From positions 7,478 to 71,477 of the forward strand of contig CAIQCQ010000038.1 in NCBI GenBank assembly GCA_903870365.1: a stretch of DNA of 64,000 nt, read 5' to 3'. This stretch comes from an uncultured bacterium. Its GTDB lineage: Bacteria; Patescibacteriota; Minisyncoccia; Phycocordibacterales; DATDWN01. Numbering within the stretch: the stretch's first letter is position 1; every line of letters begins with the position of its first letter. Of this stretch, positions 1,721 to 63,027 are shown piece by piece. The position numbers and the translations under genes are program-made. The notes below the pieces were generated by a model that saw only the letters and a program-made list of their open reading frames with translations, was not told the origin of the DNA and did no database searches.

Positions 1721-1903
1721 ACAACACAGATCGCCAGATTTGAAATTAAATTTGGTAAAAAAATGGCCCGCCTGTGAAGGCGAACATAACCCTCATATAT
1801 TACAGCACTATACTTTTTTTGTCAAATCAAAATGTGTCGCACCTTATCCACAGGTGGATATACGAACACATGAATAAGAGTATAGAAATGCTATACTAAA
1901 GGT

Positions 1904-2566
1904 ATGGCAAACTTCAAAGGAAAACATGATGCAATCGTTCTTCGTAAAAAGGGCTATAGTTACAGCCAGATAAAGACAGCTCTTGGAATAAGTAAGGGGA
2001 CTCTGAGTGAGTGGTTACGTCCGTATCCACTTTCCCCAGAAAGAATAAAAGAATTACGGGACAATAGTCCTCAGAGAATAGAACGCTACAGGAATACCAT
2101 GGCTCAAAAACGCCAGGCAAAACTTGACTCCGCCTTTAATAAAGCAAAGGGGGATATTAAAAAACTCTCAAAAAGAGAATTGTTTATCTTTGGTTTTGCG
2201 TTATATTGGGCAGAAGGTGGAAAAACAAGAGCAAGCTCGTTATCACTCGGAAATACAGATCCTGCAATGTTGAAAGTTTTTATACAATGGCTTACATTAC
2301 TTGGAGTTCCCAAAAATAAACTACGTATTAAGCTTCATATGTATAAAGATATGGATCAAAAAAAGACAATTGCTTTTTGGAAACAAATATTGGGAGTAGG
2401 GGATGATCAATTTATCAAACCGTATATTAAAGATTCTCGTCTTACTGACCTGACATACAAAAATGGCTTTGGGCACGGCACATGTAATATCGTGTATGAT
2501 AATACAGAAATGACACGTTACGTCTTGATGGGAATGAAATATATAGTAGAGTATCTAACGACATAA
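1904..2566 (+). CDS. HTH domain protein with single LAGLIDADG-like motif (putative free-standing homing-endonuclease-like protein)
   Basis: N-terminal HTH (YSYSQIKTALGISKGTLSEWL); FGFALYWAEGGKT resembles the LAGLIDADG motif with a conserved acidic residue; lies directly 5' of tRNA-Ile. Confidence 0.4.
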   Translation: MANFKGKHDAIVLRKKGYSYSQIKTALGISKGTLSEWLRPYPLSPERIKELRDNSPQRIERYRNTMAQKRQAKLDSAFNKAKGDIKKLSKRELFIFGFALYWAEGGKTRASSLSLGNTDPAMLKVFIQWLTLLGVPKNKLRIKLHMYKDMDQKKTIAFWKQILGVGDDQFIKPYIKDSRLTDLTYKNGFGHGTCNIVYDNTEMTRYVLMGMKYIVEYLTT

Positions 2567-2570
2567 AAAT

Positions 2571-2643
2571 GCACGCATAGCTCAGTTGGTAGAGCAGATG
2601 TCTTATACACATCAGGTCCTAGGTTCGAACCCTAGTGCGTGCA
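2571..2643 (+). tRNA. tRNA-Ile, anticodon UAU
   Basis: Cloverleaf: acceptor GCACGCA/TGCGTGC, D-arm GCTCAGTTGGTAGAGC, anticodon stem GATGT/ACATC with loop CTTATAC, T-arm CTAGGTTCGAACCCTAG; no CCA encoded. Confidence 0.75.
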
Positions 2644-2644
2644 C

Positions 2645-4198: not shown

Positions 4199-6358
4199 TC
4201 ATTCAAAGTGAATACTGCCTGCAGTTTTTTCAAGTTCAGATTTTAAAAGAGGATATTTTTTCAATTGAAAATCCTCTGCAATAATTTGTTTAGCTTCTTC
4301 GCGAGCAGCCTCAACCATCTTGAGATTTTGCAACGCGTCCATGGCTAAATCAGAAATGCCCCATTGTTTACCGCCGTACAGTTCACCTGCACCACGTTGT
4401 GACAGGTCAAACTCTGCCAACTCAAAACCATTTTTTGCTACACTCAAAGCCTTCAATCGAGCCACTGTTTTTGCCCCAGTACTCTCGGTAAAGACGTAAC
4501 AATATGCTTGGTGGTTACTCCGAATCACTCGTCCTCGAAGTTGATGGAGTTGAGACAAACCAAATCGTTCAGCACCTTCGATAAGGATCATTGTTGCATT
4601 TGGTACATTAACCCCGACCTCCACTACTGATGTAGCCACCAAAATATCTGTCTTGTGATTCGTAAAGTCCAGCATATTTTTTTCTTTCTCTGAAGTAGTC
4701 ATCTTGCTATGGAGGATGCCCACTTTCCAACGTGGAAAAACTTCGGTCTGTAGACGTTTGGCTTCTTCGGTCACTGATTTAGCGATGACAGCCATTTCTT
4801 TGGTTGGGTCGGCTTCATTGATACGTGGACAAATAATATAGAGCTGTCGACCCTCTTGTAACCCTTTTTCAATTTCTGTATATGTTGCCACACGGTCTTT
4901 TGGTAAGACAATTTTAGTAATGATTGGCTTTCGTCCGACTGGCATTTGATCAAGAATAGAAAGATCGAGGTCACCATAGAGTGTCAGTGACAATGTGCGG
5001 GGAATAGGGGTGGCGGTCATCGATAACAAGTGTGGCATATGGACCTGATTTTTCTGTGTCAGTTTTTGTCGTTGTGCTGTTCCAAAGCGATGTTGTTCAT
5101 CAATAATAACAAAGGCTAAATGCTTGAAAATGACTGATTTGGAAATAAGCGCATGAGTACCTACCACAATAGGGATCTCACCATTTGCTACCCATTTAGA
5201 CAGTTGAGCTTTAGAAACACTGGTCCATCCATTTTTATCTGATTTAGATGGGAATTTTTTACAGCCCGACCCAGTGATCAAACCGACTGCGATACCAGTA
5301 CCACGAAAAAACTCTATAAAATTTTCAAATTGTTGTTTGGCCAAGATTTCTGTCGGGGCCATGTAGGCCACCTGGAGGTTACCAAAGTTTTGACCTGTCG
5401 GTCGTGATGTCACCACGGCAAACGTGGTGGCCGCAGCTACCGCTGTCTTGCCAGAACCAACGTCTCCTTCGAGTAAGCGTGACATGGGGTGACCCGAGCG
5501 AAAGTTAATCAGGATAGTTTCAATACTTTTTTGCTGGGCGTCGGTGGCTTTAAATGGAAAGTTTTTAATGAAACCATCAACAGATTTTTTGTCTGCAGTA
5601 ATATCAAAACTTTTTTCCGCTTTCCATTGTGATTTTTCTTGTTGTTTACGTAGCTGAATAAAAAATATTTCCTGAAAGGCAAATCGTTTGCGGGCAGCCA
5701 GGGCATCACTTTCACGTTTTGGCGCGTGAATATATATCAGAGCATCAGACATACCTGGCAAATGATATTTGTCCAAAATCTCTTGGGGGATAGGATCGAC
5801 CAATGTTTCCAACATGCCGCTTTTAAAAATACGTTCGATGTTGTGATAGATCCAATTTGATGTCAGACCACGACTTTCTGGATAGACTGGATACAACGCA
5901 TGCTCTTCACCCTGGTCTCCAAATAGATTTTTACCCACAGCTAGTGGCACCTTGCCAGCAATTTCTATTTTTGGATTAGAAAAATAAATATCTCCTTTGC
6001 GATCAGAGACTTTTCCTTCAATACGCACGGTGGCACCCTCACGGATCATTTTTGCTAAATATGGTTGATTAAACCAGACGATTTTGACTCGACCAGTTTC
6101 ATCAGTGACTGTTGCCTCGGCCATGGGAATTTTTTTCACAAAAGCTTTGCTCATCTTCAAACCAGTAATAGTGCCATACACCACGGCATCTTCGCCAACA
6201 GCAAGAGTGCCAATATTTTTTACTTCACTGGTATTACCGTAGCGCACAGGGAAGTGATACAGCAAATCTTCAACAGTTTTTATGCCAAGTTTATGTAAGG
6301 CTTTTTTCTGTGGCTCAATGGTACGAAAAGCTTGTTCAATAGGAGTGTTGGGATTCAT
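4199..6358 (-). CDS. recG: ATP-dependent DNA helicase RecG
   Basis: 719 aa; wedge domain, Walker A GDVGSGKTAVA, DEQHRFG, helicase C-terminal motifs (QLHQLRGRVIRS). Confidence 0.9.
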   Translation of the reverse strand: MNPNTPIEQAFRTIEPQKKALHKLGIKTVEDLLYHFPVRYGNTSEVKNIGTLAVGEDAVVYGTITGLKMSKAFVKKIPMAEATVTDETGRVKIVWFNQPYLAKMIREGATVRIEGKVSDRKGDIYFSNPKIEIAGKVPLAVGKNLFGDQGEEHALYPVYPESRGLTSNWIYHNIERIFKSGMLETLVDPIPQEILDKYHLPGMSDALIYIHAPKRESDALAARKRFAFQEIFFIQLRKQQEKSQWKAEKSFDITADKKSVDGFIKNFPFKATDAQQKSIETILINFRSGHPMSRLLEGDVGSGKTAVAAATTFAVVTSRPTGQNFGNLQVAYMAPTEILAKQQFENFIEFFRGTGIAVGLITGSGCKKFPSKSDKNGWTSVSKAQLSKWVANGEIPIVVGTHALISKSVIFKHLAFVIIDEQHRFGTAQRQKLTQKNQVHMPHLLSMTATPIPRTLSLTLYGDLDLSILDQMPVGRKPIITKIVLPKDRVATYTEIEKGLQEGRQLYIICPRINEADPTKEMAVIAKSVTEEAKRLQTEVFPRWKVGILHSKMTTSEKEKNMLDFTNHKTDILVATSVVEVGVNVPNATMILIEGAERFGLSQLHQLRGRVIRSNHQAYCYVFTESTGAKTVARLKALSVAKNGFELAEFDLSQRGAGELYGGKQWGISDLAMDALQNLKMVEAAREEAKQIIAEDFQLKKYPLLKSELEKTAGSIHFE

Positions 6359-15241: not shown

Positions 15242-15253
15242 TAACATATACCT

Positions 15254-15688
15254 ATGCGTTTTCAAGTTCCACAATTTATTGAAATAGAGGACAAAGTTAT
15301 TGGCCCACTAACCATCAAACAATTTGTTTACCTTGCTGGTGGTGCGGGCATGGCTTTTGTGGCATATACATTTCTCCCTGGATTTATCGCTCTGTTTGTT
15401 ATTGCGGGCATCATTGGTTTGGCTCTTGCTTTAGCTTTTTATAAAGTAAACAACAAACCATTCATTGATATGCTCGAGTCTGCGTTTGGTTTTTACACTG
15501 GAGAAAAACTATACATCTGGAAAAAAGTAGATAAAAAAATAATTCCAAAAGAACAAGCGACCGGACAAGAAGAACTTCGTGAGGTATACGTACCTCGTTT
15601 GTCAGATAGTAAATTAAAAGAATTGAGTTGGAGTTTAGATGTAAATGAAAATTTAGGAGGAGGGAAAGAGACAAGAGATAAGAGATAA
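15254..15688 (+). CDS. PrgI-family (VirB3-like) small membrane protein
   Basis: IEIEDKVIGPLTIKQFVYLAGGAGMAFVAY followed by a second TM helix; the last residues ETRDKR are encoded by repeat family 1. Confidence 0.5.
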   Translation: MRFQVPQFIEIEDKVIGPLTIKQFVYLAGGAGMAFVAYTFLPGFIALFVIAGIIGLALALAFYKVNNKPFIDMLESAFGFYTGEKLYIWKKVDKKIIPKEQATGQEELREVYVPRLSDSKLKELSWSLDVNENLGGGKETRDKR

Positions 15689-15760
15689 GAGATACGAACA
15701 AAAAATATCCTACTCATTTTTCTTATTTCATATCTCTTATCTCAAATCTCATATCTCTAT
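15665..15760. repeat. Heptamer-type palindromic repeat, family 1, no cargo
   Basis: Left arm gagacaagagataagagataagagatacg, right arm tcatatctcttatctcaaatctcatatctctat, about 30-nt loop. Confidence 0.6.
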
Positions 15761-15777
15761 GTTATAATTTACCCACC

Positions 15778-16425
15778 ATGGCCACTAGTGCTCCACAATC
15801 AAAAGCAACACAAGACTTTGTTCCCATCCAAGAAGTACGTGATGGCATCATCACCCTCAAAGACGGGTCTCTTCGTGCAATTCTCCTCGCTTCATCACTC
15901 AACTTTTCTCTCAAATCAGAAGACGAACGCAACGCGATCCTGTTTCAATTTCAAGATTTTCTCAACTCACTCGATTTTCCTGTCCAAATAGCTATCCAGT
16001 CACGTCGATTGGATATTCGACCATATATTGCACTACTCGAAGACCGCTACAAGGAGCAGGTCAATGACCTCATGAAGATACAAACTCAAGAGTACATTGA
16101 GTTCATCAAGAATTTTACTGAAAACACCAACATTATGACCAAAAGTTTTTTTGTTGTCGTACCATACACACCAGCTATTCTCAAAGGGGAGTCACTTACT
16201 AAATTTAATTTTCTTGGTAAACAAACCCAAAGCGAAAAAGCTTCACAAAAAACAGAAAGTTTCGAAGAAAACCGTACACAAATCGAGCAACGTCTCGGGG
16301 TTGTAGAACAAGGTCTCGTCAGCTCTGGTGTTCGTGTCGTCCGTCTTGGTACCGAAGAGGTGATCGAATTATTTTACAAGATTTTCAATCCTGGTGACAC
16401 CGAAAAACCTATCAAATTGAGCTAG
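15778..16425 (+). CDS. VirB4/TraE-family ATPase, N-terminal fragment (CagE_TrbE_VirB-like domain)
   Basis: PIQEVRDGIITLKDGSLRAILLASSLNFSLKSEDERNAILFQFQDFLNSLDFPVQIAIQSRRLDI matches the N-terminus of Gram-positive-type VirB4 proteins; the ORF stops at a 10-bp hairpin and continues as 16890..18695. Confidence 0.55.
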   Translation: MATSAPQSKATQDFVPIQEVRDGIITLKDGSLRAILLASSLNFSLKSEDERNAILFQFQDFLNSLDFPVQIAIQSRRLDIRPYIALLEDRYKEQVNDLMKIQTQEYIEFIKNFTENTNIMTKSFFVVVPYTPAILKGESLTKFNFLGKQTQSEKASQKTESFEENRTQIEQRLGVVEQGLVSSGVRVVRLGTEEVIELFYKIFNPGDTEKPIKLS

Positions 16426-16444
16426 TAAGTTCAATTTGATAGGT

Positions 16445-16868
16445 TATAGAGATAAGAGATTTGAGAAATGAGATATGAAAAATCCATCTGATGAAAAAGA
16501 AACAATTAAAAAATTTTCTGATTTATCTGCATGGCAAGAGGGCCACCGTCTTGTAATTCAGGTATACACCATAACAAAATTTTTTCCTAAAGAAGAATTA
16601 TTCGGAATTACAAACCAAATCAGAAGAGCTGTTGTTTCTATTACTTCAAATATTGCGGAGGGTTTTGGTAGAGGAACAAGTCAGGATAGAGTTCATTTTT
16701 ATATTATAGCAATCGGATCACTTAATGAGGTGCAGAATCAGTTGCTTATATCAAAAGATATCGGTTATTTAAATCACACAGAATGGAATGAATTAGAAAA
16801 ACAAGGTATCATTGTACACAAGATACTCAGTGGTTTGATTAGAAAATCCAAATCAAATCTCTTATCTC
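16445..16868 (+). mobile_element. Inverted-repeat-flanked cassette with a four-helix-bundle gene inserted in virB4
   Basis: GAGATAAGAGATTTGA at 16449-16464 and its perfect reverse complement TCAAATCTCTTATCTC at 16853-16868 bracket CDS 16475..16879. Confidence 0.5.
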
Positions 16869-16879
16869 AAATCTCATAA
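16475..16879 (+). CDS. Four-helix-bundle protein (23S rRNA intervening-sequence protein family)
   Basis: WQEGHRLVIQVYTITKFFPKEELFGITNQIRRAVVSITSNIAEGFGR...SLNEVQNQLLISKDIGYL is the family signature. Confidence 0.75.
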   Translation: MKNPSDEKETIKKFSDLSAWQEGHRLVIQVYTITKFFPKEELFGITNQIRRAVVSITSNIAEGFGRGTSQDRVHFYIIAIGSLNEVQNQLLISKDIGYLNHTEWNELEKQGIIVHKILSGLIRKSKSNLLSQIS

Positions 16880-16889
16880 CTCTATTCAC

Positions 16890-18695
16890 ATGTCCCTACT
16901 CGATTTTTTAAAAAAGAAAGAACCTCTCCAGATCACCTCTATCCTGCCACAGGAAATATACGAGGCGGGCGCTTTGGAGTTGGCTGATGTTATCGCTCCA
17001 TCAGCACTCAAAATCAGTCCAAAAGAACTCAACTTGGGTGAAAAAATCGTCCGATCGTTTTTTGTTATCTCATATCCACGATATCTCAATGAAAGTTGGT
17101 TTGCGCCGATCATTAATTTGGACAAAGTTTTTGATATTTCCATCTATATAGAGCCGATTGAAACAGCCGCTGCACTCAAATCCTTTCAGAAAAAAGTGGC
17201 CGAGGTGCAAAGTCAAATCATGACTCGAGAAGAAAAGGGTTTGGTCCGAAACCCCATGCTCGATACTGCATATCAAGACCTCGAGCAACTTCGTGACAAT
17301 CTCCAGCAAGCCCAGGAGAAGCTTTTTAATGTTGGAGTGTATATCACTATGTATGGCGACAAGACAGAGGAGCTCGACAAAATCGAATCTGAAATCAAAT
17401 CTATCCTCGAAGCCAAGCTCGTGTATGTCAAACCCGCTCTCTTTCAACAAGAGCAAGCCTTTAAAACTGTGATGCCTGTTGCGACCGATCTTCTTGGTGT
17501 CTATAGTAAACTTAATTCTTCACCCCTCTCATCACTCTTTCCTTTTATTTCTTTTGACCTGACTTCTGACAAAGGTATTTTGTACGGCGTCAACCGCCAC
17601 AACTCATCCCTCGTCCTCTTTGATCGTTTTTCTTTGGAAAACTATAACTCTATTACCTTTGCAAAGTCTGGTTCCGGAAAATCATACGCTACCAAGCTGG
17701 AAATCTTGCGAACCCTCATGTTTGATACCTCGGTCATGGTTCTCGACCCAGAAAATGAATATGAGTACATGGCTGAAGCTGTTGGTGGACGACATTTCAA
17801 TATCTCACTCAACTCTGAACACCACATCAACCCCTTTGACCTGCCAATACCGACAGAAGGTGAGTCCTTTGCCAATGTCTTACGATCAAACATCGTCAAC
17901 CTTGTTGGACTCTTTCGTATTATGATGGGAGGTCTCACGCCAGAAGAAGATGCGATCATTGACCGAGCTATCACTGAAACATATGCACTAAAAGACATAA
18001 CTGCTGATTCTGATTTTACCAACACCGAGCCACCACTCCTCTCTGATTTTGAATTGGTGCTCTCTGGTATGGAAGGGGGGGATTCACTGGCTCAACGATT
18101 GACAAAATACACCAAGGGTACTTGGGCTGGTTTTATCAACCGTCCCACAAACATCGACATCAACAAAAAGTTTGTAATTTTTTCTATCCGTGACATGGAA
18201 GACGAGCTCAAGCCGATCGCTATGTATATCATCATGCATTATATCTGGGCAGCTATCCGACGTGACTTGAAAAAACGTCTCCTCGTCATTGATGAAGCCT
18301 GGTGGATGATGAAATCAGAGGACACCGCATCATTCCTCTTGTCACTCGCAAAACGGGGCCGAAAATACTACCTTGGTGTAGCTACTATTACCCAAGACGT
18401 GGATGACTTTTTGAAGTCACCGTACGGTCTACCGATCATCACCAACTCATCTATCCAAGTCTTACTCAAACAATCACCATCATCTGTCGACAAACTACAG
18501 CAAACATTTAACCTGACAGACGAAGAAAAATATTTACTCCTCGAATCAGCTGTGGGGGAGGGTATATTCTTTGCTGGTCTCAAACATGTGGCAATCAAGA
18601 TTATTGCCAGCTACACCGAAGATCAGATCATCACCTCTGATCCAAGCCAGATTTTGGCAATCAAGAAAGCGAAGATGGGATTGGCTAAGAGTTAA
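16890..18695 (+). CDS. VirB4/TraE-family T4SS ATPase, C-terminal part with ATPase domain
   Basis: Walker A FAKSGSGKSYATK, Walker B RLLVIDEAWWMM, ITQDVDDF; its N-terminal 200 aa (IAPSALKISPKELNLGEKIVRSFFVISYPRYL) match the second half of the VirB4 N-domain. Confidence 0.85.
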   Translation: MSLLDFLKKKEPLQITSILPQEIYEAGALELADVIAPSALKISPKELNLGEKIVRSFFVISYPRYLNESWFAPIINLDKVFDISIYIEPIETAAALKSFQKKVAEVQSQIMTREEKGLVRNPMLDTAYQDLEQLRDNLQQAQEKLFNVGVYITMYGDKTEELDKIESEIKSILEAKLVYVKPALFQQEQAFKTVMPVATDLLGVYSKLNSSPLSSLFPFISFDLTSDKGILYGVNRHNSSLVLFDRFSLENYNSITFAKSGSGKSYATKLEILRTLMFDTSVMVLDPENEYEYMAEAVGGRHFNISLNSEHHINPFDLPIPTEGESFANVLRSNIVNLVGLFRIMMGGLTPEEDAIIDRAITETYALKDITADSDFTNTEPPLLSDFELVLSGMEGGDSLAQRLTKYTKGTWAGFINRPTNIDINKKFVIFSIRDMEDELKPIAMYIIMHYIWAAIRRDLKKRLLVIDEAWWMMKSEDTASFLLSLAKRGRKYYLGVATITQDVDDFLKSPYGLPIITNSSIQVLLKQSPSSVDKLQQTFNLTDEEKYLLLESAVGEGIFFAGLKHVAIKIIASYTEDQIITSDPSQILAIKKAKMGLAKS

Positions 18696-18765
18696 GAGAT
18701 GTGAGACCTGAGAAACGATAGACATCATATATTTTTCTCTTTTCTCTTTTCTCATATCTCTATTC
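18690..18765. repeat. Heptamer-type repeat, family 1, degenerate copy
   Basis: gttaagagatgtgagacctgagaaacgatag ... ttctcttttctcttttctcatatctctattc. Confidence 0.45.
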
Positions 18766-18768
18766 AAC

Positions 18769-19188
18769 ATGGCAGAACAACAATATCAAAAAAGGCCGTT
18801 ACCCCAAGAAAAAGAGCCCGAAACAAAGGAGTTGAGTATTGGCAATTGGATGTTAAAAGGTTCTGTCGCTCTGTTTTTTGATACAACAGGAGCTTTGATA
18901 AATCTCCTACCTGTGGCAGGCCAAATTCTTGAAGAATTTAACGATCTATTTGCTGACGGAGTTTTTTTATTGTGGTTTACCCTTGATGGTGTCAAATACT
19001 CAAAAAACACTATGTTTGGTAGTTTTGTACTGAAATTTATACCTATATTAAATATGCTACCAGAATACACACTTATGATTATCATTATGTATATGAAATC
19101 AAAAAAAGACGCTGCGGTGAGAAAAACTGTCGGTGGTGGCAGTATTGCCCGTACCATTGCAAACCAAAACAAAAGTCCCAACGCATAG
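18769..19188 (+). CDS. Small membrane protein
   Basis: Two or three hydrophobic segments; N-terminal 43 nt are identical to 13280-13322. Confidence 0.4.
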   Translation: MAEQQYQKRPLPQEKEPETKELSIGNWMLKGSVALFFDTTGALINLLPVAGQILEEFNDLFADGVFLLWFTLDGVKYSKNTMFGSFVLKFIPILNMLPEYTLMIIIMYMKSKKDAAVRKTVGGGSIARTIANQNKSPNA

Positions 19189-19237
19189 TGTGAACAAAAG
19201 ACAAACACAACACTTTTCTTATGCTAAAATATAATTA

Positions 19238-20266
19238 ATGAAATTTTTTTCTAAAACTTTTATTTTTTTTCTTATTCTAGCTTCAAGCTTGTTGCTTCCA
19301 GCTTCTATTCCTGCCCACGCCCAGCTCAATGTTGGTCTCAGTCCTGCTGATATTTCAACTGATGTCGAGCCAACAAATCCTGGACCATTTCAACAAATCA
19401 GTGTCACCATAGACAGTTATGCCACCGACCTCAATGGGGTCAGTATTTCCTGGGTAGTTAATGGAAAAAAGGTTGTCTCTGGTATTGGTAAAAAGGGTAT
19501 CAGTCTGACCACCGGAGCCATTGGTAAACAAACCTCTATTAATATCACCATCGACTCTATTACCGGCACCATTACCAAAAACATCACCATTATCCCAGCC
19601 ACAGTGGATATGATATGGGAAGCCAACACATATACTCCACCATTTTTTAAAGGTAAAGCCATCTTTAGTCCAGAAAGTGTGGTGACATTTGTAGCAATAC
19701 CGCACCTCATACGAAACGGGGTAGAGGTCTCACCAAAAAATCTCATATACACATGGTCAAACAACGGCACTGTCCTCGGTAGTCAAAGTGGCTATGGTAA
19801 AAGTACCCTCAGTATCGCGGGCAGTATCATCCCACGACCCTTTGATATCACGGTAGAGGCTAGTGATCCGAACACAGGCTCTGTGGCCGACGGAGAGACT
19901 GTTTTGGCATCACAGACTCCTTTTGTACTCTTTTATAAAAATGATCCACTCTACGGAGTACAGTACGAACATGCACTGACTGGTGTTATTCCACTCACCA
20001 CACAGGAAATGGAGATCACTGCAGTCCCATATTACTTTAGTGCTCGATCTATGTTTGATAATCTCCTTTCCTACAATTGGGAAATCAATGGTACACCGAT
20101 CGGTGACGGTATAAACAGTCCGGACAAAGTCTTTCGCCGTACAGGCACAGCTGTTGGACAATCAAATGTTTCAGTGTCAACGACACAGAGTGCTACAATG
20201 TTTCAGACAGCCAACCAGGCAGTAACAATTGATTTTCAGAATAGTAGTACGCAAGTAGGGTTGTAG
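19238..20266 (+). CDS. Secreted protein with cleavable signal peptide
   Basis: MKFFSKTFIFFLILASSLLLPASIPAHAQ then a beta-rich Thr/Ser/Gly-rich region. Confidence 0.4.
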   Translation: MKFFSKTFIFFLILASSLLLPASIPAHAQLNVGLSPADISTDVEPTNPGPFQQISVTIDSYATDLNGVSISWVVNGKKVVSGIGKKGISLTTGAIGKQTSINITIDSITGTITKNITIIPATVDMIWEANTYTPPFFKGKAIFSPESVVTFVAIPHLIRNGVEVSPKNLIYTWSNNGTVLGSQSGYGKSTLSIAGSIIPRPFDITVEASDPNTGSVADGETVLASQTPFVLFYKNDPLYGVQYEHALTGVIPLTTQEMEITAVPYYFSARSMFDNLLSYNWEINGTPIGDGINSPDKVFRRTGTAVGQSNVSVSTTQSATMFQTANQAVTIDFQNSSTQVGL

Positions 20267-20342
20267 GAGAATAGAAATATGAATGAAGAATTATGATGCA
20301 CAATAATAGAGACCTAGGGAAAATTAGGAATAAGAAAATATT

Positions 20343-21347
20343 ATGAGAAAAAATACACAAAAAACTATTTTGAATATACTGCGGGTGACCATGATCAGTG
20401 CTTTTTTGTTTGCGAGTGCGACCTCGATCGCTATGGCGCAAGCACAAACGCCACAACCTTATACGGTATTAGCACCACTTCCGGGAACAACAATTGATGC
20501 AAATTGCACAGGTACAGCATGCACAAGTGATCTCTCTCATTATCTTCCCGGTATTTTTAATCTCATGATCGGTGTGGCGGCAGTGGCAGCCTTTGTCGCC
20601 ATTACTATTGGTGGTTTTGAATATATGTTTACTGATGTTCCAGGGGTTAAAGCGAGTGCAAAAGGTATGGTGTCCAATGCCTTTTGGGGTCTTGGTTTTA
20701 TTATTTTTGCTTATGCCATCCTCAATACCATCAACCCAGTGCTCCTCAAGGGAAGTTTGAATATTACTCCGCCAACAGTGGCAAGTGGTGGTGGACTAAC
20801 CACAGGAACTGGTGGTGCCACAACAAATGTCGGTGGAAATATCGCTGGAGTTGCAATGACAACAGATCAACAGACAGCATCAGATGCTGTGAGAGCAGCT
20901 TTAAAATCCCAAAGTGGTGGAGTTGTTACGGCTTATGCAGATCCTTGTACAAGGGGTCAAACAACTGGTTGTGTTGATTTAAATGGATTAACACCATCAA
21001 CCCAAAATGGTTTAGAATTATTGGGGAAAAATTGTGGTAGTGGATGTAAGGTTGTTATAAGTGGTGGTACCGAGGCGGGACACAGTACTGGATCAGATCA
21101 CAATAAAGGTAACGGTGTTGATATTGAACCAAACGCACAACTTACAAACGCTGTAACAAATAATTTATCTAATGATCCTTCTATTTGTAAAGCGGGGGCA
21201 GGAGGAACTTGTAATGGCCTTGCAGCATGTAATAAATATACAACATCAGTTGGTGGACAGACTGCAACTTATCTTTGGGAACCCACAGGTTCAACGTGTG
21301 GAGGAAATGTTCCTTCATCAGCTCCTCATTGGCATGCAAGCTTTTAA
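20343..21347 (+). CDS. T4SS pilin-like (VirB2/TrbC-like) N-terminus fused to a LAS/M15-type metallopeptidase-like C-terminal domain
   Basis: Signal peptide; LPGIFNLMIGVAAVAAFVAITIGGFEYMFTD...AFWGLGFIIFAYAILNTINP is a two-helix pilin pattern; C-terminus has GHSTGSDHNKGNGVDI (SxHxxGxAxD-like) and APHWHASF (EPWH-like) zinc-ligand motifs. Confidence 0.45.
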   Translation: MRKNTQKTILNILRVTMISAFLFASATSIAMAQAQTPQPYTVLAPLPGTTIDANCTGTACTSDLSHYLPGIFNLMIGVAAVAAFVAITIGGFEYMFTDVPGVKASAKGMVSNAFWGLGFIIFAYAILNTINPVLLKGSLNITPPTVASGGGLTTGTGGATTNVGGNIAGVAMTTDQQTASDAVRAALKSQSGGVVTAYADPCTRGQTTGCVDLNGLTPSTQNGLELLGKNCGSGCKVVISGGTEAGHSTGSDHNKGNGVDIEPNAQLTNAVTNNLSNDPSICKAGAGGTCNGLAACNKYTTSVGGQTATYLWEPTGSTCGGNVPSSAPHWHASF

Positions 21348-21352
21348 CTCAT

Positions 21353-22612
21353 ATGAAAAATATTCTTAAAATTTCAACTATTGTCCTCGGTATTATTGCA
21401 GTAGGGTTACTGTACTATTATTTCTTTTTCTTTAAAGCTAGTACACCGACAATCAACACATCGACAAAACCCAGTTCAACCAACTTCTTTCCTTTTGGTC
21501 AGGGTGGTACGACAGGTAACACAACTAAACCAAACACCAATACAAACCCCACCACTCAACAACTTCAGCAAGCGAGTAATTATCTCCAAAAACTTCGCCT
21601 CATTTCCAACGAACCCGTTGCTGGCGCCACATTCATCGAAAACAAAAATACAGTTATTATCCGTTACATAGAAAAAGCTACGGGACATATTTATGATGTC
21701 TCTACTAATTCTGCGACCATTAACCAAATTTCCAACACCACTTTACCAAAAATTCATGAGGCTTTCTTTACCGACCTTGGTCTTGGACTGATTGCTCGCT
21801 CTGTCGGAGATGATGGAGAAAGTATCCAGACTATTTATTCAAAACTACCAGCCAGTGTGGCCACAACTACGCAAAAAATAGCCTCAAGCAGTATACTCAC
21901 ACTAAACCCACTTGTTCTACAAACAAATATTCCTTTTTTGACCGTCTCTCCATCAACCAAAAATATCTTTTATACTCAAAAGAGTTTTGCTGGTAGTACT
22001 GGCATCATCGCCCTCTCAAACGGCACAAGTAAAAAACAAATCTGGAGTTCTCCGGTACGCAGTGTCTACCCACAATTTTCAGGGGAAAACACTGTCCTGG
22101 TCACGACCGCACCCAATGCATCCGTCTATGGCTATGCTTACTTGGTCAACACCAAAACGGGTGGAGTCAAAAACATTCTCGGTAATATCTATGACCTTTC
22201 CGTCTTTGCTAATACCACTGGTACTGATTTTGTATACTATACCAGTGCAAGTGGGGGACAATTCTTTCATTATGTTCTTGCAAATAGCTCCACCACCCCA
22301 CTGACACCAACAACCTTCCCTGAGAAATGTGTCTTTGATACCTCAAGTAAAACATCACTCTATTGTGCAGTGCCAAATGATTCGCTCTCACAAAATTCGC
22401 TTGATAACTGGTATCTTGGACTGAACTCGTACTCTGACAGTATCTGGAAATATGACCTCAAAGCAGGAACCTCTCAAATGATCGAGGATCTTTCATCCAA
22501 TGCTGGGCGAAATATTGACGTCATCAATATGCATATCAACACCGTTGGTTCACTCCTCCTGTTTCAAAGTAAGACAGATGGAAGTTTATGGAGTTTGAAT
22601 GTGGGAGCGTAG
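21353..22612 (+). CDS. Membrane-anchored protein with large extracytoplasmic beta-rich domain
   Basis: MKNILKISTIVLGIIAVGLLYYYFFFF TM anchor then a Thr/Asn-rich linker; the ORF-track start at 21275 overlaps the upstream gene, so the ATG at 21353 is preferred. Confidence 0.4.
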   Translation: MKNILKISTIVLGIIAVGLLYYYFFFFKASTPTINTSTKPSSTNFFPFGQGGTTGNTTKPNTNTNPTTQQLQQASNYLQKLRLISNEPVAGATFIENKNTVIIRYIEKATGHIYDVSTNSATINQISNTTLPKIHEAFFTDLGLGLIARSVGDDGESIQTIYSKLPASVATTTQKIASSSILTLNPLVLQTNIPFLTVSPSTKNIFYTQKSFAGSTGIIALSNGTSKKQIWSSPVRSVYPQFSGENTVLVTTAPNASVYGYAYLVNTKTGGVKNILGNIYDLSVFANTTGTDFVYYTSASGGQFFHYVLANSSTTPLTPTTFPEKCVFDTSSKTSLYCAVPNDSLSQNSLDNWYLGLNSYSDSIWKYDLKAGTSQMIEDLSSNAGRNIDVINMHINTVGSLLLFQSKTDGSLWSLNVGA

Positions 22613-22651
22613 AGAGGGTCTGCAGACAGAAGTTTGAAACTAGAAGTTAGA

Positions 22652-22689
22652 AAATTAAATTCCCTAGGTGACGCCTAGGGAATTTAATT
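22652..22689. terminator. Bidirectional rho-independent terminator
   Basis: Perfect 17-bp inverted repeat AAATTAAATTCCCTAGG-tgacg-CCTAGGGAATTTAATT flanked by A/T runs, between convergent genes. Confidence 0.6.
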
Positions 22690-22744
22690 ATAAAAATGGG
22701 TGGATTGAGGGCTCAAGCCCGCAATGACGAAAAGGAATATTTTC

Positions 22745-23476
22745 TTATTTCGTCCCTCCGCGTACTCTCTTTCGAAAGTATAACTCCTGAAGAACAGTAA
22801 ACACATTACTCGTCACCCAATACAGTGAAATTGCTGCTGAAATACTCCATGAAATAAAGAATACGAGCACAGGAAAAAAATATTTCATTTGTGTCTGGAA
22901 GGATTTCATCATTTCTGCAGTACTGTTTTTATCAGCACCTTTTCCCTCGAGATCTGCGGGTGTGGCATACTTTATCTGGAAAAATGTACTAATACCAGCA
23001 AGGAGAGCTAAAAAGACACTCTTTTGTGCAATATCAGAGATAAACAAAAAATTCATTGCAATATGCGCTGGAGCAGAAACAAAATGATACAGCTGTGTCA
23101 TATCAACTTGGGGAAGTCCTGATTTCAAAAACACTCGGTAGAGGGCAATGATGATGGGGAGTTGAATGATAAGGACAAAAAAACCAGCAAATGGATTAAT
23201 ATTCTTTTCTTTATAGAGTTCAACTGTTTTTAATGTTTGTTGCTCTTTGTCTTCTTTGTATTTTTCTTTAATTACTCTTAGATCTTTCTCTATTTCCTTC
23301 ATTTCCATCTGAGCGTAGGTAGCTCTCATGGCCAAAGGGAAGAGGACTAGTTTGACGATGATAGTAAATAAAATAACAACCAATCCAGCTCCAGCCCAAG
23401 GGAGAAGGTCAAAAAGGAAAATGAGACCATTATAGAGTGGTTGATAAAAAACAATAGTAAAAAATTGGGTAATCAT
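22745..23476 (-). CDS. yidC: Membrane protein insertase YidC (short form)
   Basis: NPFAGFFVLIIQLPIIIALYRVF and 5 TM segments; sits in the rpmH-rnpA-yidC operon. Confidence 0.85.
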   Translation of the reverse strand: MITQFFTIVFYQPLYNGLIFLFDLLPWAGAGLVVILFTIIVKLVLFPLAMRATYAQMEMKEIEKDLRVIKEKYKEDKEQQTLKTVELYKEKNINPFAGFFVLIIQLPIIIALYRVFLKSGLPQVDMTQLYHFVSAPAHIAMNFLFISDIAQKSVFLALLAGISTFFQIKYATPADLEGKGADKNSTAEMMKSFQTQMKYFFPVLVFFISWSISAAISLYWVTSNVFTVLQELYFRKRVRGGTK

Positions 23477-23594
23477 GGTTACGAATTATATTGGTAAATA
23501 TAATTCCCTTACTCGGACGATGTGAATAAGATTACTTATTCACCCGCTCCTCGATGGGAATTATACGAATAAGATAGAATACAAGAATAGGGGA

Positions 23595-23930
23595 CTACAT
23601 AATACCTGATTGTGTCAGTAATTGTAGCACCGTTCCATTAATTTCACTAAACGTACTTTTTTCAGCACCTTTTTTAAAACTATATACACCATAAAAACCA
23701 GGTTGTATTTTTATAAGGACTTTTGTGAGGGTATTGTACCCACGTCGACGGAGTCGATTACGATCAACAGCACTTTTTGCAACCTTTTTAGAGCACAAAA
23801 AAGAAAACTGACTTGGTGTTTGGTCTGTTTTCTTGTAGATATATAGGGAAAGAACAGGGGAATGATAGCTATACCCCCGACCAAGGGTCTTAAACTCGGT
23901 TTTACTGATTCTGAGGGTGCTTGGAAGCAT
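23595..23930 (-). CDS. rnpA: RNase P protein component
   Basis: KKVAKSAVDRNRLRRRGYN, the RnpA RNR motif. Confidence 0.8.
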   Translation of the reverse strand: MLPSTLRISKTEFKTLGRGYSYHSPVLSLYIYKKTDQTPSQFSFLCSKKVAKSAVDRNRLRRRGYNTLTKVLIKIQPGFYGVYSFKKGAEKSTFSEINGTVLQLLTQSGIM

Positions 23931-42761: not shown

Positions 42762-43011
42762 CTCCCCAGTCGGAACCCGTATTATGGATACTAATATATA
42801 ATTTTAGAACGTAAAAAATCAATTATCTTGGTGGATATTCTGTGCATAAGATGTGTATTTCGTGGGGGCGTGTGGGGAGAGTGAGGTACCAATATTTTTG
42901 AAGTGGATTCTGTGGATGTTTATTCGTTTTGTTGTGGTCATGCATAGTTTTCTGTTGAAAACTTGCACGACCCTGACTCGCGCCGTCGCGCTCCGTCTCG
43001 CACACGTAAAC

Positions 43012-43037
43012 AAAAACAGCATACCAATGCTGTTTTT
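43012..43037. terminator. Bidirectional rho-independent terminator
   Basis: AAAAACAGCAT-acca-ATGCTGTTTTT. Confidence 0.6.
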
Positions 43038-43040
43038 AAA

Positions 43041-43212
43041 TCGTGTGCGCCCAGCAAGGTGATCTCCCTCGAATTTTCAAAATCGTCATTTTGAAAATTC
43101 TGGGCACCAGATTGGCGACAAACTCTACTGATTTCGTATACCGCCAATCTGTTCGATCCCTAACACAAAGCTTTGCTTTGTTCTGGTGCCACAAAATTCC
43201 TTTGAAATTTTG
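43041..43212 (-). mobile_element. Miniature tRNA-3'-end-associated structured element (copy L), bounded by a direct repeat of the tRNA-Lys 3' end
   Basis: Begins right after tRNA-Lys and ends with CCTTGCTGGGCGCACA (43044-43061, versus tRNA 3' end CCTGCTGGGCGCACA); 88-nt core shared with 52521-52701; four perfectly paired hairpins. Confidence 0.55.
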
Positions 43213-43285
43213 TGCGCCCAGCAGGGATCGAACCTGCGACCTTGTCCTTAAAAGGGACCTGCTCTACCGACTGAGCTATAGGCGC
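43213..43285 (-). tRNA. tRNA-Lys, anticodon UUU
   Basis: Reverse complement GCGCCTATAGCTCAGTCGGTAGAGCAGGTCCCTTTTAAGGACAAGGTCGCAGGTTCGATCCCTGCTGGGCGCA folds as a cloverleaf. Confidence 0.85.
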
Positions 43286-43368
43286 GTATAAGACAAAATA
43301 TATCAGAAAAACAGAAAAAGTCCAACAAAATATAGATGGTTTTCGATATTGGTAAAAAAATCGAACCC

Positions 43369-52410: not shown

Positions 52411-52448
52411 TTTTTAAAGTGTTTTGTGGTAGTTTTGGTGAGTTAGTA

Positions 52449-52520
52449 TGCAGCCGTCGTTCAATGGATAGGACACTCCCCTGCGAAGGGAGAAATGCAG
52501 GTTCGATTCCTGCTGGTTGC
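52449..52520 (+). tRNA. tRNA-Arg, apparent anticodon GCG
   Basis: GCAGCCG/TGGTTGC acceptor with two G-U pairs, anticodon stem CTCCC/GGGAG, loop CTGCGAA, T-arm GCAGGTTCGATTCCTGC. Confidence 0.65.
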
Positions 52521-52701
52521 ACAAAAAAACAGAAATCGCCACGGGCGGTTTTTGTGCAACCAGAACAAACCAAAGGTTTGTGTCAGGAATCGAACAGATT
52601 AGCGGTGCACGAGCTCAGTAGAGCTTGTCGCTAATCTGGTGCCCAGGATTTTGTTAACGGTTGTATTACAAAATCTGAGGGAGATATTCCTCCTATTGCA
52701 C
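52521..52701 (+). mobile_element. Miniature tRNA-3'-end-associated structured element (copy R), bounded by a degenerate direct repeat of the tRNA-Arg 3' end
   Basis: Immediately 3' of tRNA-Arg; 15-bp hairpin CTGGTTGCACAAAAA/TTTTTGTGCAACCAG; core 88 nt about 86% identical to copy L with compensatory stem changes; ends GAGGGAGATATTCCTCCTATTGCACA versus tRNA GATTCCTGCTGGTTGCACA. Confidence 0.55.
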
Positions 52702-52710
52702 AAAACAAGC

Positions 52711-61675: not shown

Positions 61676-61951
61676 ATGCAGTTTGATTCTAGGACTGTCA
61701 CTAATGGAATTATAAGTGCTTATGATAACTCAATTAAATTTCAAAACTGGGGATTTACGACCACAGGTTCACTTCCGTATGGAAATTATTTTGTAACAAA
61801 TACAATAGATCATGGAAATTCCGGAGGTATAGCGATTTCAAAATATAATGGTAATTTGTGTGTACTTGGCATACCTACATGGCTAAACGCAGGAGTTAGT
61901 AATAATCAGGGTATAGTTCAAAATATTCAAAATGTTATGTACGTAAAATAA
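61676..61951 (+). pseudogene. Trypsin-like serine protease C-terminal fragment
   Basis: 91 aa; GNSGGIA resembles the GDSGG active-site box; no N-terminal His/Asp region upstream in frame. Confidence 0.35.
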
Positions 61952-61958
61952 TCGAATA

Positions 61959-62687
61959 ATGAAAAATGATTTGGATGCGACAAAAGAAAAACTCATAGAA
62001 ATACTTAGTCAAGAAAAGGGATATTTTGGACGTGTGCGCACGTGGGGACAAAGACCAACAGAATATGAATACATAGGTTATGAGTTGACAGAAGATTTTT
62101 TACCCACTTTACAAAAAATATCTGACGAACAACGAAAGAATCTTGTGATGATAATGTATTATTTTGAGATGCACGTACATCCCCTTAGGGATTTATTGGA
62201 AACGAAACAAAAAAATCAACTTGATAAACTTTATTCTGAAATAGCGTGGTCTCATTTTATGACAGTTGTTATGTTTGGGATGTTAGAAATTGCAGTGAAA
62301 GGTGAAAGAGGTGTCTGGTTGGGTGAAAAAGGGAAGAAAATAAAGAAGTTTTTACAAGATAATTTATCAGATAAAATTAAAGAAGATATAGCTGAAAGAT
62401 ATAAGGTTGATAAAATTTTTGATTATAAAAAAGAAGTCAAGAGTTTTTCCGATGTCATTGATCATATGTGGTCTCAAATTAGGTCTGGATTTATTCATGA
62501 TGCAGGAATCGAATCAAAAGGCCTTGAGTGGAATACGTTTGAGGGAATTGGTACAAAAGAAAACCCGATAACCATTAGATCAGATGTGCCTATTCAAGAA
62601 TGGTTACAGATTACATGGCAAGCTATTTTAAATTCATATGGTTACAAAGGTTTATTAAAACTTCCGAAATACAAAAGAAATACCTAG
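61959..62687 (+). CDS. Hypothetical protein with HEPN-like Rx4H motif (islet cargo)
   Basis: 242 aa, mostly helical; WSQIRSGFIHDAG contains R-x4-H. Confidence 0.35.
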   Translation: MKNDLDATKEKLIEILSQEKGYFGRVRTWGQRPTEYEYIGYELTEDFLPTLQKISDEQRKNLVMIMYYFEMHVHPLRDLLETKQKNQLDKLYSEIAWSHFMTVVMFGMLEIAVKGERGVWLGEKGKKIKKFLQDNLSDKIKEDIAERYKVDKIFDYKKEVKSFSDVIDHMWSQIRSGFIHDAGIESKGLEWNTFEGIGTKENPITIRSDVPIQEWLQITWQAILNSYGYKGLLKLPKYKRNT

Positions 62688-63027
62688 TTACTACTATTAA
62701 GTGGAAAAAACCTATTTGATATGGTTTAATGACTGCATTACTAAAGCTATTCGGACATCGTCCCACACTCCCCGCATTTTTGAACGCAGGGAAAAACTTT
62801 GGATGAAACAAAATTGAAGATTTTGTGTGTGAGATTAGAACGACGGAGCGATTCTTGGCTTAGTAAAGCCAAGACGCGAGTCGGTGCCCAGACCAAAAAT
62901 TTCTGACGAGAAATTTTTGAGTTGCGGGAGAAAAGCGTACTCGCGGTCTCACCTCATCCGCATTGTAGTAAAAAATTGAGAAGGAACTTTCGTCTAATCT
63001 CCACCGAAACTTAGTATACTTGTATAT

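Follow-up and report, generated by a model that had tools for sequence, protein, structure and literature searches.

Integrative mobile elements exploiting Xer (IMEX), such as CTX-phi, do without a recombinase of their own and exploit the host XerCD, for which two inverted attachment-like sites in the single strand of the element fold into a hairpin that imitates the duplex dif site; integration regenerates the target, so that arrays build up, and is effectively one-way. Insertion sequences (IS) of the IS200/IS605 group and palindrome-associated transposable elements (PATEs) have strand-specific hairpin ends, and the target is read by internal pairing, as in IS608, and can be reset by changing the guide. 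The bridge RNAs of IS110 and the seekRNAs of IS1111 are folded scaffolds with variable segments that covary with the insertion flanks and read both target strands; they lie inside an element that encodes its recombinase, their guides of 4-7 nt sit in internal loops, and a 2-nt core is duplicated. Cis-mobilizable elements (CIMEs) are enzyme-less, are bounded by attachment (att) repeats that include the 3' end of a tRNA gene, and undergo tandem accretion (PMC5704250). Here we describe an element found in a stretch of 64,000 nucleotides from an uncultured member of the Patescibacteria (contig CAIQCQ010000038.1; this whole stretch is called the window below). It stands directly 3' of tRNA genes, carries an arm complementary to the tRNA 3' end and closes with a second copy of that end. 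Comparison with related loci indicates that it very probably belongs to a mobile, non-autonomous family of insertions specific for tRNA tails, and this family, which occurs across Patescibacteria, is previously undescribed in the resources we searched.

In outcome, the element comes closest to CIMEs, which are likewise gene-less or enzyme-less, carry a direct repeat that includes the tRNA 3' end and leave the tRNA intact. However, CIMEs are decayed integrative and conjugative or integrative and mobilizable elements (ICEs or IMEs) that have a larger parent and its integrase, neither of which we found for the present element, and the latter is about 150 nt long, has a strong structure that belongs to one strand, bears an inverted copy of its target and uses at least 15 tRNA species instead of one. 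In proposed logic, the closest system is the IMEX CTX-phi, with no enzyme of its own and a folded mimic of the target, but here the target is a tRNA 3' end rather than dif (every copy lies at the 3' end of a tRNA or at what remains of one), the element is non-coding and smaller by a factor of 30-50, its hairpin arm is interrupted by a further hairpin (hp1), and its single-stranded form is one predicted in silico. With the IS200/IS605 group it has in common the strand-specific hairpins and, in our proposal, target reading by internal pairing; there, however, the pairing covers 4-5 nt as against about 24 nt here, and insertion occurs without a direct repeat and 3' of a fixed tetra- or pentanucleotide, whereas the present element has a long repeat and a variable junction sequence. 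Like miniature inverted-repeat transposable elements (MITEs), it is small, non-autonomous and multi-copy, with terminal inverted repeats and hairpin folding. In contrast to MITEs, its inverted repeats are copies of the local tRNA and vary among the elements, we found no parent IS, the duplication measures 16-28 nt instead of a fixed 2-10 bp, and insertion is strictly site- and orientation-specific. Bridge RNAs resemble it in having a scaffold whose variable parts covary with the flanks, but the present element has neither an adjacent effector gene nor an Rfam match. We also considered an integron attC site and rejected it, as the R''/L''-L'/R' boxes (RYYYAAC..GTTRRRY) are absent on reading the sequence and there is no integrase nearby. 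Full-text literature searches returned no description of such an element, and a recent paper on tRNA genes of the candidate phyla radiation (CPR) covers group I introns only (PMC13011429).

Evidence for insertion behind tRNA genes

Two copies in the window, L and R, lie directly 3' of tRNA-Lys and tRNA-Arg, respectively, and could be compared with sampled genome and metagenome loci, labelled L0xx, that are at most about 15 kb long and mostly 8 kb or less. In L048 and L051 (PolA 77% and 79% identical), tRNA-Lys is without an element and reads ..GCGCACA followed at once by TGAaTCAAAAACAGCAT, a terminator, whereas the window reads ..GCGCACA, then the element, which ends in CCTTGCTGGGCGCACA, and then CGATTTAAAAACAGCAT. 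Because the junction in L048 and L051 follows ..ACA, what the window has in addition is exactly the element and one copy of the tRNA tail. The old terminator of tRNA-Lys now lies beyond the repeat, separated from its tRNA by the insertion; it (43011-43037) went uncalled in a pattern scan because its stem is AT-rich. A further relative, L050, carries at tRNA-Lys a copy with flawless arms. The tRNA-Lys cassette (promoter, tRNA and trailer elements) has the same flanking genes in all four loci but lies in the window and in L050 in the opposite direction to that in L048 and L051, and the tRNA-Arg cassette of the window is inverted relative to L066, L068 and L069, so that there are two small inversions (window 42930-43330 and 52440-52710).

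Different cores, which we group into subfamilies A to E, occupy the same site in different genomes: tRNA-Arg(gcg) is followed by an A core in the window, a C core in L066, an E core in L068 and nothing in L069, where it abuts the next gene. Tandem arrays occur in L025, L028, L030, L047 and L022, and in L022 a left arm stands alone behind tRNA-Val. In L030, the repeat of the outer copy corresponds to the other allele of tRNA-Leu(tag), which is still found in L006, and repeats therefore keep the tRNA tail of the time of insertion. In L018, the element retains the arms and the repeat of an old tRNA-Asp that has itself since been replaced. The tRNA now at this place (L018, about 5610-5900, minus strand; compare L025, 5542-5616) has an internal insertion of about 250 nt and another T-arm and acceptor, is not called by ARAGORN, and is probably an intron-containing allele that replaced tRNA-Asp after the element had inserted. 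The point of insertion is fixed, 2-3 nt beyond position 73, and so is the orientation. In L043, tRNA-Ser(gct) and an A-type copy enclose a different, short hairpin block (1835-1992, minus strand) that has a tRNA-tail copy of its own; it may be a decayed or an unrelated tRNA-tail insert.

A first-pass annotation of the window, made from its letters alone, had suggested a miniature non-autonomous integrative element, and the empty sites, the replacement of cores, the arrays and the truncated or detached copies support that suggestion. The annotation had also read the repeated tRNA end as the signature of site-specific integration. Insertion is indeed what the comparisons reveal, but the step from there to a tyrosine integrase finds no support, as none was detected in the open reading frames (ORFs) of the window or among the 130 ORFs around the copies.

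Distribution of the family

An exact-pattern scan of 185,579 species genomes gave 35 loci. The 14 that have the 52-nt match length of L and R all come from Patescibacteria (Saccharibacteria, Parcubacteria and unclassified members), and the 21 others, which would have placed copies beyond this group, are chance matches that a covariance model rejects. A second pattern led to 9 metagenome contigs. The covariance model, trained on 17 copies, recovers 35 copies at E < 1e-5 in 24 loci, and a 36th copy in L066 brings the total to 25 Patescibacteria loci, a large family. Every copy lies just 3' of a tRNA or of a preceding copy, in the orientation of the tRNA. The hosts, at least 15 tRNA species, include Lys, Arg, several Ser, Leu (tag and caa), Ala, His, Asp, Met, Trp, Tyr, Thr, Pro and Glu (ctc and ttc).

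The last 12 nt of the tRNA are repeated with 0-2 mismatches for 22 of 44 sampled tRNAs, nearly always 120-175 nt downstream, and in an upstream control never with fewer than 3 mismatches. Since half of the sampled tRNAs carry the repeat, the element is not a trailer common to all tRNAs, the case that the first-pass annotation had named as speaking for a general terminator module. We likewise rejected a general module for tRNA termination or processing, as about half of the sampled tRNAs are without the element and at least five unrelated cores exist in subfamilies A to E, to which a minimal form has to be added. The distance between the two repeats ranges from 136 to 186 nt, and all 36 copies are contiguous. 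Cores D (L022, 5440-5640, minus strand, behind tRNA-Arg(tct)) and E (L068, 4110-4277, minus strand) follow the shared plan of antisense arm, hp1, two hairpins and repeat with unrelated sequences, and both escape the covariance model, which makes the superfamily wider than the 36 copies counted.

Searches of other collections gave no relatives. At gathering threshold, Rfam 15 matches only the four tRNAs of the window, and at E up to 10 over copy L only chance-level matches appear, with scores far short of the gathering scores; the families covered include tRNA-like RNAs, tmRNA, Y RNA-like RNAs, ribozymes and group I/II introns. None of the 50,697 phage records of INPHARED contains a copy (only tRNAs match), and three pattern sets run against IMG/VR yielded chance matches only, all of them rejected by the covariance model. 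A phage or plasmid origin of the window itself was rejected on its gene content, which is that of the chromosome of a Parcubacteria-like bacterium (PolA, RuvABC, Fpg, ABC transporters, DnaA/DnaN and the RNase P protein); the closest named relatives of its PolA are from metagenome-assembled genomes of Zambryskibacteria, Minisyncoccota and Parcubacteria.

Common plan and fold

All subfamilies share one plan: the tRNA is followed by a spacer, an arm a', hairpin hp1, an arm t', hairpin P2, a linker of 2-3 nt, hairpin P3, a tail, the direct repeat and the original trailer or terminator. The spacer, missing in short forms, is often a hairpin with a GC stem and a GNRA loop, preceded by an A-run and followed by a T-run, as in a two-way terminator, and in many copies an intrinsic terminator stands between tRNA and core. 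Read as reverse complements, arm a' gives the acceptor 3' strand with discriminator and trailer, and arm t', which ends in GAAC, gives the 3' strand of the T-stem with the T-loop. As a whole, this left arm is the reverse complement of tRNA positions ~54-76 plus trailer, and hp1 splits it exactly at the boundary of T-stem and acceptor, at the same place in all copies. The complementarity to the tRNA is perfect or nearly so, over 12 + 22 nt in L050, 12 + 19 nt in L025 and, without a mismatch, 12 + 15 nt in copy R of the window. The tail after P3 reads AGAGATT or similar, and the direct repeat extends from tRNA position 56-60 to at least 2 nt past the discriminator, 16-28 nt when intact. The left arm, the most unusual feature of the element, had been overlooked in the first-pass annotation, as had a third copy in the window. 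What had been described was a hairpin using the acceptor strand; its 15 bp are present in R but are merely part of the larger tRNA-complementary arm.

Covariation as a sign of a selected structure, which had been claimed from two copies, is strong in an alignment of 35. Standard pairs fill 95.2% of the paired cells, against 72.5% in shuffles; double-sided changes are found in 29 of 31 pairs (220 cells); and none of 500 shuffles reaches any of these measures. In a control with slid partners, the covariation score of 0.59 drops to at most 0.13. Each of the 18 pairs of helices 1-2 varies, and in 16 pairs both sides have changed. Because G-U combinations outnumber A-C combinations, 47 to 8 (22 to 8 after dropping one conserved G-U), it is the tRNA-sense strand that folds. 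The same counts led us to reject a tRNA-like gene on the opposite strand, where ARAGORN finds nothing. Two motifs recur across the subfamilies, the P2 bulge region CGG-NN-TAC...GTCG and the P3 tip GAG-Y-GACG-R-CGAG, which consists of two G-A pairs, two base pairs and a GACG loop. To judge from their sequence, these motifs look like features for recognition by a protein.

The isolated element, from a' to the repeat, is predicted to fold closed (z = -9.8 as DNA and -8.9 as RNA): a' pairs with the acceptor strand of the repeat and t' with its T-stem strand, together with hp1, P2 and P3. Hairpin hp1 interrupts the 5' strand of the closing helix at the place where a tRNA has its D and anticodon arms. 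As modelled, then, the element is a stem-for-stem imitation of the acceptor/T helix of its host tRNA in which P2 and P3 replace the T-loop. Paired with the repeat or with the tRNA tail, the arm makes in silico a target-like hairpin out of inverted att-like sites. Among the hp1 loops, about half are GNA triloops with a closing C-G pair (GCGAAGC, GCGTAGC, GCGGAGC), a motif that is the classic very stable DNA mini-hairpin.

Three further structural readings were discarded. A closing stem GGCACC/GGTGCC that would enclose stems 1 and 2 looked good in L but fails because GGTGCC never varies, whereas the strand it should pair with follows the tRNA; the antisense arm is not a primer-binding site for mature tRNA, since it pairs with the genomic trailer and not with CCA; and the strands of a hammerhead-like three-way junction, read by eye, have no matching core. 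Most tRNA genes in this material (the window, L004, L020 and others) do not encode CCA, and N73 is followed by CA or by an A-rich sequence. The anticodons of tRNA-Ile(tat) and tRNA-Arg(gcg) are unusual for bacteria.

Copies in the window

The window holds four tRNA genes, copies L and R, a third, diverged copy and an older minimal member of the family, with the following parts.

2571-2644, plus strand: tRNA-Ile(tat) (ARAGORN, Rfam)
42933-43004, minus strand: C-mini, older minimal family member, TGTGCGAG ACGGAGCG..CGCGAGTC AGGGTC, hairpin, GACC ACA (subfamily C motifs)
43011-43037, minus strand: original terminator hairpin of tRNA-Lys, AAAAACAGCAT..ATGCTGTTTTT (directly 3' of the tRNA in L048 and L051)
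43044-43210, minus strand: copy L, subfamily A, element and second tRNA 3' end (covariance model 134.6 bits at 43059-43194)
43044-43059, minus strand: copy L, direct repeat of the tRNA-Lys 3' end, CCTTGCTGGGCGCACA (13 nt exact)
43060-43065, minus strand: copy L, tail AGATCA after P3
43066-43104, minus strand: copy L, P3 with base CCC..GGG and loop GACG
43108-43151, minus strand: copy L, P2 with 10 bp, a 4-nt 5' bulge GTAT, an upper stem of 7-8 bp and loop AGTA
43151-43164, minus strand: copy L, anti-T arm t', GTTAGGGATCGAAC (reverse complement of the tRNA-Lys T-loop and T-stem 3' strand)
43165-43181, minus strand: copy L, hp1, ACAAAGC AAA GCTTTGT, between the two halves of the antisense arm (sequence, folding)
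43183-43193, minus strand: copy L, arm a', TGTGGCACCAG (reverse complement aligned to the tRNA 3' end)
43183-43210, minus strand: copy L, spacer hairpin AAATT TCAAAGG AATTT and anti-acceptor arm a' (sequence)
43213-43285, minus strand: tRNA-Lys(ttt), host of copy L (ARAGORN; Rfam tRNA, 69.3 bits)
52450-52521, plus strand: tRNA-Arg(gcg), host of copy R (ARAGORN; Rfam, 60.3 bits)
52524-52705, plus strand: copy R, subfamily A (covariance model 125.9 bits)
52524-52548, plus strand: copy R, spacer with a small terminator-like hairpin
52549-52563, plus strand: copy R, anti-trailer and a', TTTTTGTGCAACCAG
52565-52581, plus strand: copy R, hp1
52582-52595, plus strand: copy R, t', GTCAGGAATCGAAC
52595-52638, plus strand: copy R, P2
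52642-52681, plus strand: copy R, P3, then tail AGATATT
52689-52705, plus strand: copy R, degenerate repeat, CCTCCTATTGCACAAAA
61289-61376, plus strand: tRNA-Ser(tga), cognate tRNA of the third copy (ARAGORN, Rfam)
62798-62963, plus strand: third copy, diverged, subfamily B (covariance model 45.3 bits at 62798-62935, E = 1e-9)

The earlier description of L and R as structures 3' of a tRNA that end in a repeat of its tail holds for both: the repeat of L, CCTTGCTGGGCGCACA, is identical to tRNA-Lys (CCCTGCTGGGCGCACA) at 15 of 16 positions, and that of R is degenerate, with exact identity to tRNA-Arg confined to its right part, TTGCACAAAA. The tRNA-Lys gene does not encode CCA and is followed by CA (43211-43212); a promoter-like TGGACT-16-TATATT lies by it at 43297-43324. 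The core common to L and R, from CCAGAAC to GGTGCCCAG, had been put at 88 nt and about 86% identity; we count 76 identical positions out of 87 (87%), with compensatory differences. Core motifs of 18 and 14 nt each occur exactly twice in the window (chance expectations 0.07 and 0.28). Stem 1, stem 2 and the third hairpin are present in both copies as first described. Stem 1 (hp1) reads ACAAAGC/GCTTTGT in L and ACAAACC/GGTTTGT in R, a compensatory change of G-C to C-G, and stem 2 (P2) differs by G-C against A-T. In comparison with shuffles, the two copies fold with z = -9.0 (L) and -7.3 (R). Two stretches that had been taken for conserved single strands, GGTGCCCAG and GAGGGAGAT, turn out to be mostly paired, as their CCC and GGG form the base of P3, and diverged members have TTT/AAA or GTC/GAC in their place.

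The arms and the 17-nt repeat of the third copy, TCTCACCTCATCCGCAT (62947-62963), match tRNA-Ser(tga), which lies 1.4 kb upstream, parted from its element by an insert of that length (61377 to ~62770). This insert contains a fragment of an HtrA-like protease (61676-61951) and an ORF of 242 amino acids (61959-62687) with zero matches in Pfam, NCBIfam and PADLOC, and ends near a degenerate tRNA-Ser tail, TCCCACACTCCCCGCA, at about 62768-62783. tRNA-Ile has no element, and tRNA-Ser has none adjacent to it.

Copy L looks, on comparison of sequences, like a derivative of an Arg-type copy. L and R are identical at 15 of 17 positions of hp1 and have the P2 tip CAGTAGAG in common, and the last 27 nt of tRNA-Lys and tRNA-Arg differ at 3 positions. 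The repeat of L is purely of Lys type, and its t' follows the T-loop base that is specific to Lys (GATC; copy R has AATC), whereas its a', GGCACCAG, matches Lys at 5 and Arg at 6 of 8 positions. A Lys-type repeat combined with an a' no closer to Lys fits a hop from an Arg-type donor to tRNA-Lys, in which the new target would supply the repeat and the donor the arm. Arms might later be perfected if imperfect palindromes are corrected as they are replicated, which is known as a mutational process, although for these arms this is speculation.

Resident copies are well conserved. C-mini lies downstream of the tRNA-Lys terminator in all four related genomes (the window, L048, L050 and L051) and is 87-89% identical across these genomes, which represent different genera, with compensatory changes, whereas the DNA identity of the flanking genes is 67-72%. 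Between the window and L050, identity of the A-type copies is only 74%, and both copies have perfect hairpins. The conservation of C-mini and the intact A-type hairpins indicate that the structure is maintained after insertion; possible causes are a need of the host for clean removal of the insert from the tRNA precursor, as with introns, a function of the RNA, or repeated replacement by active copies.

Neighbouring genes

The neighbourhoods of the copies consist of housekeeping genes. Pfam searches of the 130 ORFs around copies and of the window ORFs found no recombinase, transposase, reverse transcriptase or Cas1, and searches with Pfam, NCBIfam and PADLOC found no such enzyme among the ORFs between tRNA-Ser and the third copy. 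TnpB, IscB and IS110 genes are likewise missing beside the copies, and the HUH transposase TnpA (Y1) was not seen in the window and the sampled loci.

Elsewhere in the window, the cumulative GC skew reaches its minimum near 20-22 kb, and DnaA and DnaN domains (Pfam) and the gene for the RNase P protein (23598-23930) lie in or near ~15250-23930; the replication origin is probably here. Just upstream of this putative origin are genes resembling those of type IV secretion systems (PrgI, 15254-15685, and a TraG-like P-loop protein), as well as a protein similar to 23S-rRNA-IVP/Avd (16475-16876).

Discussion

We lean slightly towards the view that the present element is a non-autonomous insert of tRNA tails that is guided by its complementary arm and moved in trans, a mechanism that we infer from its anatomy. 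The active form would be a folded single strand, of DNA or RNA. This strand would find its target through its left arm, which would pair with the sense strand at a tRNA gene's 3' end; equivalently, the hairpin formed by arm and repeat would mimic the target duplex. An enzyme acting in trans would read the conserved P2 and P3 motifs and join the element just after position 76, so that the tRNA would be left intact and a second copy of its tail, contributed by the target, would remain. The family would spread by hops between tRNAs with similar 3' halves. Once inserted, the element is probably co-transcribed with the tRNA and its structure would stay under selection, and the tRNA-like closing helix possibly lets tRNA-processing enzymes excise it from the transcript. 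That insertion is carried out by an unlinked enzyme, whether arm-guided or through target mimicry, is a tentative proposal that we hold with some doubt. We think it rather unlikely that the family amounts to a new kind of element, in which a re-settable split guide arm of ~24 nt is combined with a host or unlinked enzyme that reads a tRNA-stem-like fold common to target and element.

Several observations weigh against this model, and some of them against mobility itself. We identified no mobilising enzyme and saw no excised or free form in the window and the sampled loci, and the spread of repeat lengths, 16-28 nt, agrees neither with a staggered cut of constant width nor with crossover at one point. 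Cores A to E and arms combine freely, with overlapping sets of tRNAs, and since at least five unrelated cores carry overlapping arms, arms copied from the target fit better than inherited guides; at the same time, we found no copying route that inverts the target around hp1. The folded form may be DNA or RNA: the hp1 triloops are typical of DNA, and the spacer hairpins resemble terminators of RNA. The high conservation of resident copies could mean a function for the host rather than mobility. Finally, the scans of the collections required exact core matches of 20-22 nt, which biased the sample to well-conserved copies, and the alignment used for covariation was fitted to the model.

An RNA in the tRNA trailer that serves the host, in 3' maturation, termination, stability or as a mimic of tRNA stems, and that spread by duplication or gene conversion instead of transposition, is an alternative that we regard as unlikely. 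It would account for copies that always lie directly downstream of a tRNA, in its orientation and with no promoter of their own detected, for the folding of the sense strand, for resident copies that are conserved above the neighbouring genes and show compensatory changes, and for a closing helix that, with hp1, imitates the cognate acceptor and T stems. A host function is, however, hard to reconcile with its presence at only about half of the sampled tRNAs, with close relatives that lack it at the same tRNA, with unrelated cores that replace each other at one site, with arrays, truncated copies and copies cut off from their tRNA, and with an intrinsic terminator that in many copies precedes the core. 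A trailer RNA and a mobile element may also be true at the same time. We judge it very unlikely that the copies are CIME-like scars, left when a phage or island that targeted tRNA genes with a tyrosine integrase lost its interior and kept the attL and attR arms. A repeat of the tRNA 3' end that starts in the T-loop is a classic att core, and tandem accretion is typical of such sites (PMC5704250); a 1.4-kb island does separate tRNA-Ser from its element. Yet 36 of 36 copies are contiguous at 136-186 nt, their halves never parted by an interior that carries genes, no integrase is present in the 130 neighbouring ORFs or the window, no relative appears in the 50,697 phage records or IMG/VR, and arm sites that work as double strands would lack the strand-specific covariation.

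Slightly less probable still is an orphan guide RNA whose protein gene was lost, for instance the omega-RNA of a TnpB or the bridge RNA of an IS110, with the repeat as a guide of 16-20 nt and its partner protein encoded elsewhere. The order of a scaffold of ~110 nt and a segment identical to the adjacent target is what such an RNA would have, the second, bipartite antisense segment could belong to it as well, and TnpB-like genes have been reported in Patescibacteria (PMC13011429). But there is no TnpB, IscB or IS110 gene beside any copy and no match in Rfam, omega- and HEARO-type families included, and a nuclease guided by the repeat would cut the intact tRNA gene of its own host, where the same sequence follows a T-loop. 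It also counts against this explanation that IS200/IS605 and IS110 insertions are not known to leave a repeat of 16-28 nt. We give hardly any credence to a tRNA-like retroelement, comparable to a short interspersed nuclear element (SINE) or a retroplasmid, with a tRNA-shaped transcript that is processed, reverse-transcribed and returned to tRNA genes. The tRNA-like closing helix, with a hairpin in place of the tRNA body, and the folding of the sense strand would agree with it, but arm and repeat match the genomic trailer (ACA, AAA...) and not an added CCA, an A-tail is missing, and there is no reverse transcriptase near the copies or in the window.

Patescibacteria have tiny genomes and are thought to be poor in mobile elements. 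In the loci sampled here, about half of the tRNA genes bear one or more structured inserts, and for annotation the family is a missing feature of CPR genomes that accounts for pseudo-tRNA tails and for 'intergenic' blocks that are conserved. With its old repeats as fossils, the family also records past tRNA alleles. If the elements are transcribed, a mimic of its own stems would lie beside each such tRNA, which would bear on tRNA processing where CCA is not encoded. The combination of a copy of the target, a mirror copy of it and conserved hairpins points to targeting by base pairing or to target mimicry, and identifying the partner enzyme could bring to light a new insertion system, site-specific and possibly re-targetable, and, if this reading is true, a candidate programmable inserter. 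If the arm does act as a guide and an unlinked enzyme moves the element, the family would parasitise tRNA genes throughout an entire bacterial superphylum while bearing a guide and no genes.

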